This document shows positions 33,113 through 38,130 of a DNA stretch of 64,000 nucleotides, piece by piece. A program made the position numbers and the translations under genes. Origin of the DNA: Planctomycetota bacterium (GTDB taxonomy: Bacteria > Planctomycetota > Planctomycetia > Pirellulales > Lacipirellulaceae); the NCBI GenBank assembly GCA_039190745.1, contig JBCCXZ010000006.1, forward strand, positions 35,403 through 99,402. The letters are read 5' to 3'. Position 1 is the stretch's first letter. Every line of letters begins with the position of its first letter. The notes beneath the pieces were generated by a model. It saw only the letters and a program-made list of their open reading frames with translations. It did no database searches and was not told the DNA's origin.

Positions 33113-33385
33113 ATGTCGCAAGCGATTGCCGACCCATCCGAACTCCGGCGGTTCGCCCACCAGCTCCAGCAGTTCAACAACGAACTCGAAGAGCGTCTCA
33201 CTGCGCTCAACGGCCAACTCCACAACCTGAACGCCACGTGGCGTGATCAGGAACATAAGAAGTTCGCCGAGGAGTTCGAGCAACACCTACGGTTGGTGGC
33301 CCGTTCGATCGAGAACGCCAACGAGTACGCCCCTTTCCTCTTGCGCAAGGCCCAGCGGATCGAAGAGTACCTCGATCAGCGGTAG
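33113..33385 (+). CDS. WXG100 / ESAT-6-like protein
   Basis: 90 aa; DPSELRRFA N-terminus; helix-turn-helix with central W-R-D in place of W-x-G. Confidence 0.85.
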   Translation: MSQAIADPSELRRFAHQLQQFNNELEERLTALNGQLHNLNATWRDQEHKKFAEEFEQHLRLVARSIENANEYAPFLLRKAQRIEEYLDQR

Positions 33386-33414
33386 CGGCCTGCCCTCGAG
33401 GAGGGCTTCCACAC

Positions 33415-34197: not shown

Positions 34198-37100
34198 ATG
34201 GCAGGCGGTCCTGACAAGAAGCTGTTCTCGACACGCAGGCAACTGGAGCTGATGCAGCAGCTCCAGGAGTTCGCCGATGCGCGTGCGCAGGCGGAACAGC
34301 GTATCGCCGCAGAGTCCGCCGCGGAATTGACCGCCTCAGAGGAAGACCGAGACCACGCCCAGTCTCACGCCACGCAAGAGTTCAACACCACCCGGCGGGA
34401 TTTGGAGAACGAGTACGCCGCGGCCAAGCTCACCGCTGCAACCGAGTTCCGCGACCGCTCGGCTGCCGAGCGGGCCGCGTTCGAAGCCGATTCGGATCGA
34501 TTGGCAAAGCAGAAAGATCAGGTCCTCCTGCAGGTCGACCGCCGCAGCAAGGAAGCAGAGTGGCAGGCGATGGCTGTGTTCGACTCCGAGAAGGACCTGC
34601 CCCGCCAAACGCTCCAAGACACGCAGAAGCGGCTTTCTGCCCGGCGGGTCCAGATCGACGGACTGCAAAGAGACGCACAAGCCTTGATGGCGATGCGTGG
34701 ACTCTCGGAAGACACAACGGCCAGCGAATCCCCCGAAGTAGCCGATCAATCGGCCCCACCGTCTAATGAGGCGGAGCCTGACGTGATCGAGCCCATCCTG
34801 CAAGAGTCGATCAACAAAACGCACAGCCTCGTTCTCCAGCTTCAGGCTCAGCGTTTGCCGACTGCCCTCCTCGAACAAGGCCGGTTGGCAAGCTGGTACA
34901 TCGGTTTCGCGTTGCTGCTGATTGTGCCCGCGGGGTTCGCACTCGGCTGGTCGCCGTGGCTGACCCCGACCGTCGTACTTGTTGGCGGAGCCGCATTGAC
35001 GGGTTCGCTCTACGCCGCGTTGGGCTCACGGGCCCGGCAGCAGAGTAAGCAACTCTACGTGCAAGTCGCCGAGTCGATCGCCCATTCCCGCAGCCTCGAA
35101 CACGCGGCGGGCGAGAGTGCGCGGGAGCTCTCTGAAACGCAGTACCGAGCGGTTGTCGAGAAGAGAGACCACGAAGTCGCGGAAGCGCGTCGCATACGCG
35201 ACGCAGAGCGGGCGGAAGCCCAAGAGCGCCACGACGCGGGGGTTCTGCAGCTTCAGAAAGGGTTTGAATCGAAGCTGGAAATCCTCGCCGAAGAGCACGA
35301 CCGGGCGATCGCATTAGCCGATGAGAAGTTCCCCCCCCTGCTCTCCGAGCTAGCGGACCGCCGATCGCGGCGGCTGGAAGACATTGTCAACGCCTTCCAC
35401 GAACGCCGGAAGGCAGCCGAAGCGAAGCGAGATTCCGAGTGGAAGCAGATGGCAGAGGCGTGGACCAAAGGGTTTGGAGGGGTCGTCACCGAATTCGAAA
35501 GCCAGAACGCGGCCCGAGCGGCTTGGTTCCCGCCGCCCGATCGGCTCGATATCACCGAACACCGCCCGCCGGAGACCGCGTTGCCTGCTCTATGCTTTGG
35601 TCGCTACTTGCTCCCGCTTACCGCGGTCAAGAACGGCGTGCCTGCCGACGAACGGCTAAAGCCGAAAATCTCAGCCCTCGAGGTACCCGCCTGGCTTTCG
35701 CTCGCCGAGCACCCGCGAATGGTGCTCACCGGCGGGCGCGAGCACAGGCCCGCCGCGAGCCGCATGCTGCGGCTTCTGATGCAGCAATTGCTCATCGGTA
35801 CGCAGCCCGGCAAGCTCCGCTTCACGGTCATCGACGCCGCGGCGATGGGCCAAGGCCTCGCTTCATTCATGCACCTCGCCGACGAAGACGAGCAGCTGAT
35901 CGGCGGCCAAGTCTGGACCGACCCGCGCGAGATCGACGAACGCCTCGCCGAGGTCGTCAGCCACACCCAGAAAGTCCTGCAGAAGTACCTCCGCAACGAG
36001 TTCGAGAACCTCGACGAGTACAACCGATCGGCCGGAGAAGTGGCCGAGCCTTACCACGTGGTGGTAGTGTCGGGGTTCCCTGTCGGGCTGACCGACGGCG
36101 CTATCCGAAAGCTCGAACGGATCGCGCAGTCGGGGCCGCAGTGCGGGGTCTCCCTGCTGATCGATGTCGATACGGAAGCCAAGCTGCCGACCGACTTTCA
36201 ACTCGAAAAGCTCACCGAAGCCGCGGTCCACCTCGACTGCGCGACCGAACCGCCGACGTGGCGGTACCCGCTCTACGAGCGGCTGCCGCTTGAGCCTGCT
36301 CCGCTGCTTGAAGGCGCCGCGCTCACCGAGTTCTTGGAGCAGGCAGGCCGCCGATCGCGGGAAGCAAGCCGGGTAGAGGTGCCCTTCTCGGAAGTGGCGC
36401 CCCGCGAAGAGTCGTACTGGCAAAGCGACGCCTCGAGGGAGCTGGTCGTGCCGATCGGCCGGGCCGGCGCACGCAACGCCCTCTCACTTCGGCTCGGGCG
36501 CGGCACCTCGCAGCACGTGCTCATTGCAGGCAAGACCGGCTCCGGCAAGAGCACCTTACTGCACGCATTGGTCACCAACACCGCGCTGCACTACAGCCCG
36601 CGTGAGGTGGAACTCTACCTCGTGGACTTCAAGAAAGGCGTCGAGTTCAAAGCCTACGCGGCCGCCAACCTGCCGCACGCGCGGGTGATCGCGATCGAAA
36701 GCGAGCGAGAGTTCGGCGTGAGTGTGCTGGAGCGCCTGGACAAGGAACTCCACCGCCGCGGCGAGCTGTTCCGCCTTCGCGGCGTGCAAGACCTGGCCGA
36801 GTTCCGGCGGGCGGCTCCCGAAGAGCCGATGCCCCGCGTGCTGCTGGTTGTCGATGAATTCCAAGAGCTCTTCGTCGCCGACGACAAGCTGGCTCAGGAC
36901 TCAGCGCTCTTACTCGACCGGCTGGTGCGCCAAGGCCGAGCGTTTGGCGTCCACGTGCTGCTCGGTTCGCAGACCCTGGGCGGAGCGTACACGCTGGCCC
37001 GGACCACGATCGGCCAGATGGCCGTCCGGATCGCGCTGGAGTGCAGCGAGTCTGACGCGCACCTGATACTTAGTGACGAGAACCCAGCGGCCCGGTACCT

Positions 37101-38130
37101 GAGTCGGCCGGGTGAGGCGATCTACAACGACGAGAACGGCCTGCCCGCGGGCAACGAGTTGTTCCAAGTTGTCTGGCTGCCGGATTCCGAACGCCGAGAG
37201 TTCCTGTCCAAAGCGGCCGGATTGCAGGAAAAACTCGGCGAGGCCGTGCCGCCACAGATCGTGTTCGAGGGCAACGCACCTACCGACCCGAGCGCCGAAG
37301 GCCCGCTCCGACAGGTGCTAGAACACGCCGGAGAGAGCGAGTCTCCTGAACCGGTCTGCTGGCTTGGCTCTTCGGTCCGCATCGGCCCGCCAACGCAGAT
37401 CGCTCTGCGCAGGCAGGGCGGCAACAACCTGATCATCGTGTCCGGCGAAGAAAAACTCGCATTAGGATTACTCTCAACAGCCCTCATTGCGTCGGTCGCC
37501 CAGCAGTTGGATCAGCCGCCGCACGTAACGATCTTTGACGGCACCCGGCGTGAGTCTCAGGACGAAGGTTTTTGGGCTCAGCTGACAGAGGCTCTGCATA
37601 CCGATTGCAAGGTGGTTGGCGTTCGCGAGGCAGGCGCCGCGGTCGCTGCTCTAGCGGAGGAGGTGTCTCGTCGCGGTGAACAACCGGACGAGGCCCACCC
37701 GGCCTGGTACGTCGTCGTGCATGACCTGGGCCAGTTCCGCGACCTCCGGAAGGCGGACGACGATTTCGGCTTCTCCACGTCCGGGGAGACCAAGCCCGAC
37801 AAGCTGTTCCGCGACATCCTCAAGGAGGGCCCGGCTGTAGGCGTACACGTGCAGCTGTGGTGCGATTCGTTCAATGCAATGAACCGATCGATCGATCGGC
37901 TCACGCTCCGCGAGATCGACTACCGAGTGGCGTTCCAGATGAGCACGTCTGACTCGACCGGCTACATCGACTCACCAATGGCGGCCAAGCTCGGGGAGAA
38001 CCGGGCGGTGCTTTACCGCGACGACCTCGGCACGCACGAGAAATTCCGGCCCTACACGCGGCCGGCGCAGGAGTGGCTCGAATGGGTCGCAAGCCGCCTG
38101 AAGGGCGGTCGGTCCGGGGCCAAACGCTGA
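34198..38130 (+). CDS. FtsK/SpoIIIE-domain ATPase, EccC/EssC-like, with coiled coil and two TM helices
   Basis: ATG 34198; HVLIAGKTGSGKS (Walker A), DFKKGVEF, LLVVDEFQ (Walker B), RQGRAFGVHVLLGSQ; flanked by degenerate RecA-like segments; hydrophobic hairpin at ~34890-35025. Confidence 0.9.
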   Translation: MAGGPDKKLFSTRRQLELMQQLQEFADARAQAEQRIAAESAAELTASEEDRDHAQSHATQEFNTTRRDLENEYAAAKLTAATEFRDRSAAERAAFEADSDRLAKQKDQVLLQVDRRSKEAEWQAMAVFDSEKDLPRQTLQDTQKRLSARRVQIDGLQRDAQALMAMRGLSEDTTASESPEVADQSAPPSNEAEPDVIEPILQESINKTHSLVLQLQAQRLPTALLEQGRLASWYIGFALLLIVPAGFALGWSPWLTPTVVLVGGAALTGSLYAALGSRARQQSKQLYVQVAESIAHSRSLEHAAGESARELSETQYRAVVEKRDHEVAEARRIRDAERAEAQERHDAGVLQLQKGFESKLEILAEEHDRAIALADEKFPPLLSELADRRSRRLEDIVNAFHERRKAAEAKRDSEWKQMAEAWTKGFGGVVTEFESQNAARAAWFPPPDRLDITEHRPPETALPALCFGRYLLPLTAVKNGVPADERLKPKISALEVPAWLSLAEHPRMVLTGGREHRPAASRMLRLLMQQLLIGTQPGKLRFTVIDAAAMGQGLASFMHLADEDEQLIGGQVWTDPREIDERLAEVVSHTQKVLQKYLRNEFENLDEYNRSAGEVAEPYHVVVVSGFPVGLTDGAIRKLERIAQSGPQCGVSLLIDVDTEAKLPTDFQLEKLTEAAVHLDCATEPPTWRYPLYERLPLEPAPLLEGAALTEFLEQAGRRSREASRVEVPFSEVAPREESYWQSDASRELVVPIGRAGARNALSLRLGRGTSQHVLIAGKTGSGKSTLLHALVTNTALHYSPREVELYLVDFKKGVEFKAYAAANLPHARVIAIESEREFGVSVLERLDKELHRRGELFRLRGVQDLAEFRRAAPEEPMPRVLLVVDEFQELFVADDKLAQDSALLLDRLVRQGRAFGVHVLLGSQTLGGAYTLARTTIGQMAVRIALECSESDAHLILSDENPAARYLSRPGEAIYNDENGLPAGNELFQVVWLPDSERREFLSKAAGLQEKLGEAVPPQIVFEGNAPTDPSAEGPLRQVLEHAGESESPEPVCWLGSSVRIGPPTQIALRRQGGNNLIIVSGEEKLALGLLSTALIASVAQQLDQPPHVTIFDGTRRESQDEGFWAQLTEALHTDCKVVGVREAGAAVAALAEEVSRRGEQPDEAHPAWYVVVHDLGQFRDLRKADDDFGFSTSGETKPDKLFRDILKEGPAVGVHVQLWCDSFNAMNRSIDRLTLREIDYRVAFQMSTSDSTGYIDSPMAAKLGENRAVLYRDDLGTHEKFRPYTRPAQEWLEWVASRLKGGRSGAKR

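Follow-up and report, generated by a model that had tools for sequence, protein, structure and literature searches.

A co-inherited WXG100, carrier-like and EccC-like ATPase cassette without a linked toxin in Planctomycetota

Genetic organisation of the cassette

The window analysed here, a stretch of 64,000 nucleotides (nt) from contig JBCCXZ010000006.1 of the Planctomycetota bacterium assembly GCA_039190745.1 (Lacipirellulaceae), carries four co-oriented open reading frames (ORFs) that form a cassette resembling parts of the type VII secretion systems (T7SS). ORF1 (WXG-A; 33113-33385, + strand) encodes a 90-residue WXG100 helical hairpin of the HP0062 type with a W-R-D turn, the EsxA equivalent, and is followed by ORF2 (33415-33963, +), predicted to encode a stand-alone carrier hairpin of 182 residues with a disordered tail and without a warhead. 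ORF3 (WXG-B; 33968-34192, +), which begins at a GTG start codon, encodes a short hairpin of 74 residues that appears related to WXG100, and ORF4 (34198-38130, +) an EccC-like FtsK/SpoIIIE ATPase of 1310 residues. The genes are separated by 29, 4 and 5 nt, and all four lie on the + strand with the positions, sizes and gaps given by an initial annotation of this DNA. The planctomycete host assumed there agrees with the best relatives of the ATPase, which are Planctomycetota and include a Lacipirellulaceae metagenome-assembled genome (MAG) at 87% identity. As described below, the WXG100 protein, the short WXG-like protein, the empty carrier and the EccC-like ATPase are co-inherited, one copy of each, without a toxin, an immunity gene or canonical accessory components.

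The cassette has a guanine plus cytosine (GC) content of 0.63-0.66, compared with 0.649 for the genome. No sigma-70-type promoter was found at the cassette, terminators occurred at chance level, and PADLOC matches of the cassette were limited to shared FtsK/HerA modules.

ORF1 is a WXG100 hairpin and ORF3 a probable short relative

ORF1 passed the gathering score of the Pfam WXG100 family PF06013 (37.3 versus 27.3 bits, E 3.5e-9) and fell below the cut-off of NCBIfam TIGR03930 (30.7 versus 44.85). Its closest sequences in the PDB were 2gts and 3fx7, both Helicobacter pylori HP0062 (E 4e-6), a dimeric hairpin with a WRD turn according to the available text of PMC3397514. The W-R-D turn noted in the initial annotation is present in ORF1 and in 51 of 53 orthologues, with WKD in one more; it is thus not a literal W-x-G, and the variant is shared with HP0062.

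ORF3 itself matched no Pfam or NCBIfam family. Seven of its 59 orthologues, however, matched Pfam WXG100 at E<=0.01, and alignment of the ORF3 family with the WXG-A family gave 52% in HHalign (E 1.5e-4), with W31 and D33 invariant in ORF3. On these profile comparisons ORF3 is predicted to be related to WXG100 at the level of the family, and it is likely to be a Lap/PE-like partner of ORF2. Both the W-D-D and the C-terminal YRECE pointed out by the initial annotation are present in ORF3, but the reading of the latter as a YxxxD/E signal did not hold, since YRECE is not conserved and YxxxD/E occurs in the last 15 residues of a single orthologue among 59, that of the nearest relative, L001. A C-terminal cysteine is found in 42/59 ORF3 orthologues. 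Bearing on the idea of a disulfide between ORF2 and ORF3, this cysteine did not track Cys86 of ORF2 (p 0.18) and was rarer where Cys74 of ORF2 was present (p 0.004, with kin that are not independent).

ORF4 is an EccC-like ATPase with a single intact module and long helices

ORF4 passed the Pfam FtsK_SpoIIIE cut-off (E 3.3e-34) and remained below the Pfam and NCBIfam cut-offs for EccC/EssC. Its best PDB match was EccC of T. curvata (4nh0, E 1.5e-36), EccC being nearer than FtsK, and residues 495-947 aligned to the domain of unknown function (DUF) and first ATPase domain (D1) of EccCa. The protein starts with a long helix (about 10-165), followed by a linker, a hydrophobic two-helix hairpin (about 230-278) and another long helix (about 280-440), after which come a degenerate RecA module (about 460-700), an intact one (about 735-1000, with GKTGSGKS and DEFQ) and a further degenerate one (about 1040-1300). 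A model of residues 8-730 showed a long helix, a disordered linker, the hydrophobic hairpin, a helix of 190 residues and a module of RecA type, and its Foldseek matches were FtsK, the EccC DUF and Rad50. The third module is suggested by a second FtsK stretch in Pfam and by conservation. A single Walker A motif was present in 66/67 ATPase orthologues, and mean conservation was highest in the middle module (0.81), lower in the two modules beside it (0.65 and 0.58) and lowest in the long helices (0.34). A Pfam scan of ORF4 found no FHA domains; the protein starts instead with an unbroken helix.

In 52 of 67 rows the long helices have lengths of 146 and 156 residues; in ten others, which form one clade, the lengths are 154 and 163. 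Each arm is thus roughly a heptad longer in these ten sequences, as one event, which is expected of antiparallel pairing; at 0.15 nm per residue the paired helices would form a stalk of about 22 nm. The hydrophobic hairpin, as judged by conservation and hydropathy, is present in 63/67 planctomycete ATPases in contrast to 0/47 of the mobile ATPases described below.

ORF2 resembles the carrier domain of nuclease fusions

ORF2 matched no Pfam or NCBIfam family; its homologues form a large family of their own, with 3197 clusters at 50% identity. AlphaFold2 modelled it as a single long hairpin with helices at 8-76 and 87-159 and a predicted local distance difference test score of 91, in which Cys74 and Cys86 close the hairpin tip and Tyr156 is invariant. 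In fold searches no Foldseek match reached E<=0.001, and the best VIA-align match was a fragment of SMC (Z 11.2, root-mean-square deviation 9.1); these are generic coiled coils. Neither LXG nor PPE was listed in these searches, which does not exclude them. Kinship with PspA/Vipp1/ESCRT-III was considered and not accepted, as their Z of about 9 was tied with many other coiled coils. ORF2 as a WXG-A with an insert of 70 residues reached just 8% in HHalign, while single WXG-A proteins matched both ends of ORF2 weakly.

The relationship that the initial annotation had missed is with the carriers of plasmid-borne and related loci, where a coiled coil-nuclease fusion holds the gene position that ORF2 has here. 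Alignment of ORF2 with 39 carrier N-domains gave 88% in HHalign (E 3.2e-6), compared with 0.5% for a control consisting of the ATPase's own coiled coils. At E<=0.1 a carrier hidden Markov model (HMM) matched 43/150 ORF2 homologues and 1/150 reversed decoys, while some 43,700 genome ORFs gave no match. Against single sequences the result varied, from 2% in HHalign for one Caballeronia N-domain to 62% over the full length of the Rhodococcus protein. Carrier N-domains and ORF2 have in common their start, a C-x(5-14)-C-x-x-E motif at the tip (in 43 of the 46 distinct rows) and a closing L-x-x-Y, and the lengths of the two hairpin arms vary in step (74/70 in ORF2; 86/83, 93/90 and 114/111 in carriers). 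On this evidence ORF2 is assigned as the putative carrier (targeting) domain of the nuclease fusions, minus the warhead.

No nuclease was found in ORF2 or in 59 sampled orthologues. Of the latter, 55 were of 241 residues or less (one of them a fragment), and the other four, of 332-380 residues (L115, L119, L121 and L123), ended in a domain that by eye looked Imm33-like. Among 14 long ORF2 homologues scanned, five of 330-380 residues (P0018, P0053, P0061, P0065 and P0090) carried the Imm33-like Pfam family PF24719 above cut-off, and an Atlas cluster comprised 433 members, 64% of them Imm33-like. Fusions of ORF2 with a length of 423-2000 residues were not found, which by the tool's own remark is weak evidence. 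Cys74 without Cys86 was seen in 0/29 and 2/65 sequences, counted over kin that are not independent.

Two individual loci depart from the usual form of ORF2. L117 (genome G238; minus strand, 348-1136 on that strand) holds WXG-A and ORF2 in one frame joined by a Gly-rich linker, either a natural fusion like EspB or a stop codon lost in one assembly. In L128 (G263; 2992-3489) an in-frame stop lies inside ORF2, and the other three genes are intact.

The cassette is conserved, single-copy and probably for the most part vertically inherited

Relatives of the ATPase were collected by keeping the best 80 of 595 confirmed stretches, of which 79 loci were compared. Nearly all of these best loci were titled Planctomycetota, the Lacipirellulaceae MAG mentioned above being the closest. 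The four-gene order was kept in 53/79, a recurrence which indicates that the cassette is not a chance arrangement; of the others, 17 were cut by a contig end, one lacked only an adjacent ORF1, and in eight the small genes were missing beside the ATPase although 1 kb or more of upstream DNA was present. Where the ATPase stood without the small genes, ORF1 was encoded elsewhere in four of five genomes tested. In many genomes of Planctomycetaceae type the cassette was split, with the ATPase, WXG-A and ORF2/WXG-B apart and all kept (L026, L037, L045, L049, L050, L058, L077 and L017; L080-L083).

An even draw of 401 Planctomycetota genomes was used as a sample of the phylum. At least 61 of them had the ATPase, a floor because the search was a stricter first look, and the ORF2 family was present in exactly the same 61, as a rule in one copy per genome. 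The co-conservation that the initial annotation had proposed to check was thus seen both in gene order and in presence across genomes. Among the 60 of these genomes other than the present one, the four genes stood in order in 39, while in 21 no ATPase lay in the stretch fetched (two of these at a contig end), so that the ATPase and ORF2 co-occurred even where unlinked (21/60). Presence of the two was uniform within genera (5/5 and 2/2 versus 0/7 and 0/5), and in some families no sampled member had the cassette (0/33 and 0/30). A FastTree tree of 67 ATPase rows grouped broadly by family label, the labels of MAGs being noisy. As regards mobility, the cassette is patchy across the phylum, yet it is genus-consistent, single-copy and of host-like GC, in a tree that follows families broadly. 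Its inheritance reads as old and mostly vertical with many losses, that of neither a core gene nor a recent island.

ATPases in records titled Candidatus Kuenenia stuttgartiensis nested among Planctomycetaceae, and a record titled Granulosicoccus held a segment of 59% identity. These records (L045, L050 and L009) are likely to be mislabelled or mixed bins.

Accessory, toxin and immunity genes were not found with the cassette

The genome that carries the window is 95.5% complete, and each search for an accessory family in it included a positive control that matched. YukC/EssB, EsaA, EsaB/YukD and LXG had no match in this genome, their controls being found in B. subtilis (EssA was not searched), nor had EccB and EccD, with controls found in Corynebacterium (EccE, MycP and EspG were not searched). 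The absence of canonical accessory components of T7SSa and T7SSb, which the initial annotation had remarked on for the window, therefore extends genome-wide for EssB, EccB, EccD, YukD, EsaA and LXG. The single WXG100 above cut-off in the genome was ORF1; profiles of the three small families run against the six-frame translated genome revealed no paralogues, and the carrier HMM revealed no second carrier-like sequence. An Imm33-like search of the same genome was empty, in this case with no positive control that matched.

Clustering of the ORFs that neighbour the 79 loci revealed no fifth conserved component, no recurring toxin or immunity gene and no recurrent VWA, PP2C or kinase neighbours. 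The neighbours were instead lineage-specific housekeeping genes.

Relationship to mobile relatives and described systems

A related ATPase (E<=1e-30) was found on five of 72,556 plasmids, and four loci were compared. In Caballeronia (L084) and on a Helicobacter plasmid the gene order was WXG100, coiled coil-nuclease fusion, a small or SMI1/KNR4 gene, a gene for 76-77 residues and the ATPase, while the Rhodococcus and Deinococcus plasmid loci held the same kinds of genes in a different order. Among 80 metagenome loci with relatives of the ATPase from Caballeronia, 52 had WXG-A followed by a long ORF, and 51 were retained after one false pick was dropped; 48 of these 51 long ORFs contained the motif E-[VI]-K-x-G in their C-terminal half, and one was a WHH/colicin DNase by Pfam. 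A tree of D1 separated the planctomycete ATPases from the mobile ones of proteobacterial type. As the branch to its FtsK root is long and the monophyly of the planctomycete ATPases has a support of 18, no order of warhead loss versus gain is claimed.

On the Deinococcus plasmid (L085, 8015-13254) a hydrophobic segment lies on a separate gene of 142 residues before the ATPase. The carrier of this locus, of 326 residues, has no obvious warhead, so that warhead-less carriers are not confined to planctomycetes. The Rhodococcus plasmid locus (L087, 6715-13296) adjoins TerD genes, and by eye the start of its ATPase resembles TerD.

The initial annotation had proposed a T7SS-like module of WXG100 proteins and an FtsK/SpoIIIE ATPase, and this stands on the Pfam matches, the EccC-like ATPase and the co-conservation of the genes. 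Its suggestion of an undescribed system, on the other hand, is not supported, since systems of this kind appear in PMC3482391, which names planctomycetes, and in PMC11090510. In the available part of PMC3482391 (Table 1, footnote 6), a solo WXG with a YueA-like ATPase of three HerA/FtsK domains, the middle one active, is noted in planctomycetes and other diderms under 'mobile versions of T7SS'. With one active middle module and a solo WXG beside the ATPase, the cassette is a member of that class. In contrast to the 'mobile' label, it does not look mobile in planctomycetes, being single-copy, genus-consistent and sometimes split, with a tree broadly by family, and the footnote is silent on ORF2, WXG-B, the stalk and the hairpin.

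The accessible text of PMC11090510 describes, in TerY-P and type III-A CoCoNuT loci, an anchor-less EssC-like form that comprises a coiled-coil nuclease and two WXG100 genes. This module and the cassette share two WXG100-type genes and an ATPase of three domains, the middle one active, with a coiled coil at its N-terminus, and the coiled-coil protein between its two WXG genes appears to be the homologue of ORF2. There, however, the coiled coil carries a D-ExK or HNH nuclease as a fusion partner and a small gene comes next, whereas the cassette has neither a nuclease nor an intervening gene; likewise the ATPase membrane hairpin is missing (0/47) and the setting is that of defence islands, in contrast to the hairpin (63/67) and housekeeping neighbours of the cassette.

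HP0062/HP0066 of Helicobacter, named a minimal T7 set in PMC4978471 as far as its available text goes, share with the cassette the WRD turn and an FtsK-domain neighbour, HP0062 forming a dimeric four-helix bundle. The Helicobacter plasmid locus differs in its WHH/HNH nuclease, its SMI1/KNR4 immunity gene and its short, stalk-less ATPase. With T7SSa and T7SSb the cassette has in common an EccC-like motor, a WXG100 protein and, likely, a rod-shaped substrate bundle, the LXG-Lap bundle measuring about 180 x 30 A in the portion available of PMC10801868. Those systems have four ATPase modules and FHA domains in contrast to three modules and long coiled coils, and the cassette is without EccB, EccD, EssB, EsaA, YukD, LXG and YxxxD/E, in a host that is a diderm of the lipopolysaccharide (LPS) type. 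T7SSc-j, in the available text of PMC11217815, are all Gram-positive with four NTPase domains, and planctomycetes are unmentioned in that text.

Proposed function and alternative explanations

The cassette is a real, conserved, single-copy module that belongs to a class noted in comparative-genomics papers. What is new here is that the toxin was lost or never gained, alongside a membrane-tipped stalk, and the carrier homology of ORF2. We tentatively favour, at somewhat short of even confidence, the explanation that the cassette is a domesticated, disarmed T7SS-like module that transports a helical rod of its own as far as the inner membrane or across it. By analogy with EccC/EssC, with HP0062 and with LXG-Lap complexes, on which the hexamer, the stalk, the assembly of the rod and its ATP-driven movement are modelled, the ATPase would be a hexamer tethered to the inner membrane through the hydrophobic hairpin, which would sit at the tip of the antiparallel coiled-coil stalk. 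WXG-A would dimerise as HP0062 and EsxA do, and ORF2 and WXG-B, with or without WXG-A, would assemble into a rod-like bundle of helices. This rod would be bound by the degenerate modules of the ATPase, while ATP hydrolysis in the middle module would drive it up the stalk as far as the inner membrane and probably across it. In the periplasm the tip cysteines could then oxidise. The cargo would then be the rod itself or a partner bound non-covalently, and the role an accessory envelope or stress function and not the killing of neighbours. Whether the empty rod is exported to the periplasm, as the retained hairpin and the tip cysteine pattern suggest, is to our minds nearly an even call.

Several observations weigh against this explanation. 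The canonical YxxxD/E signal is in none of the three small proteins (ORF1 0/53; ORF3 1/59, as mentioned above; in ORF2, D/E four residues after Tyr156 in 7/56), and neighbour clustering revealed no linked outer-membrane or pore-scaffold component. The carrier HMM misses the ORF2 of this genome at E<=0.1, so that the homology holds at family level. The cysteine pair is present in just 25/59 of the drawn sample and also in 43/46 carriers of anchor-less systems, so that it is no proof of passage through a membrane hairpin. The hairpin itself is cleanly deleted in 4/67 ATPases (L047; L053, L069 and L078), at two separate places in the tree, with both long helices at full length and the small genes kept; together with the hairpin-less, toxin-bearing mobile relatives, these losses indicate that a membrane channel is no constant of the family. 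Such independent losses with the rest intact would suit a non-secretory machine, in which the ATPase assembles, unfolds or recycles a helical rod in the cytoplasm or at the inner membrane face, as a switch in envelope or infection stress, and the hairpin is a mere tether. The same reading would accommodate the lack of accessory membrane proteins in the neighbour clustering and genome searches, the Imm33-like domain of some ORF2 proteins, which is of immunity type and expected to act inside the cell, the likeness of ORF2 to PspA/Vipp1/ESCRT-III hairpins, no stronger than that to many other coiled coils, and the anchor-less relatives in TerY-P/CoCoNuT defence loci, for which the available text of PMC11090510 suggests 'a different mechanism'. 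It has to contend, however, with the retention of the hairpin in 63/67 ATPases, with a tip cysteine pattern that fits an oxidising compartment, and with the fact that all characterised EccC/EssC with WXG100 partners export them (established knowledge; PMC11217815, in its available part), and we regard it as a real possibility but a rather doubtful one.

Ordinary toxin export, with ORF2 and WXG-B as detachable adaptors for unlinked and unrecognised effectors encoded elsewhere, appears improbable. The descent of ORF2 from carrier-nuclease fusions, or its kinship with them, would fit such a scheme, as would the hint of a conflict role in the Imm33-like fusions and the ability of the small genes and the ATPase to stand apart; but the genome is without a second WXG100, ORF2-like, carrier-like or LXG sequence, no toxin or immunity gene recurs beside the 79 loci, the single-copy, genus-consistent presence is unlike that of polymorphic toxin loci, and the lack of long ORF2 fusions points, weakly, the same way. 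A DNA translocase or division helper for planctomycetes, which are without FtsZ, might be envisaged from the FtsK-family motor and the SMC/Rad50-like stalk, and FtsK is the sole essential dcw gene in Planctopirus limnophila in the available text of PMC6952346 and PMC12283558. Such a role seems very improbable given that only 61/401 genomes were found to hold the cassette, with the genera and families listed above empty, that a separate FtsK match exists in the genome (contig C71) and ORF4 is nearer to EccC than to FtsK, and that the sole FtsK/SpoIIIE COG in the essential-gene figure data accessible from PMC10632474 is Plim_2063, in a species for which presence of the cassette is not established.

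Going beyond the favoured explanation of a disarmed, rod-moving module, the toxin module minus its warhead might, with its motor on a 20-nm stalk from the inner membrane, have kept the empty carrier as a structural part. It would then use ATP to assemble or extrude helical rods, and so shape or repair the unusual envelope of planctomycetes. We consider this unlikely, if conceivable; if true, it would be the first type VII-derived machine with the carrier itself as product, as well as an export channel made of a single component in a diderm with LPS. That one phylum has long kept a carrier without a toxin points to a use other than killing. With one ATPase (one live domain and two membrane helices) and three small proteins, the cassette provides a natural test, on the smallest scale, of the requirements of type VII secretion, the natural anchor-less variants offer built-in controls, and genetically tractable planctomycetes make direct testing feasible. 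The 'LXG-like' logic of a carrier furthermore extends to diderm systems of the HP0062 type. No functional study of the planctomycete cassette was found in the literature searched, subscription papers being outside its coverage.

Flanking genes

Three genes near the cassette did not recur beside it in the clustering of neighbours: a TraB/GumN protein (25814-26767, - strand), a putative porin BBP7 (27005-28630, +) and, downstream, an NHL-repeat protein with a weak match to a twin-arginine translocation (Tat) signal (38226-39344, +). Directly upstream (29479-33000, +) lies a gene for a fusion of 1173 residues that joins an AMP-binding (FAAL-like) domain, an acyl carrier and a class I/II aminotransferase, possibly for amino- or sphingolipid synthesis. 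A gene of this AMP-binding/acyl carrier/aminotransferase kind stands upstream of the cassette in five close relatives only, which is thus lineage synteny.

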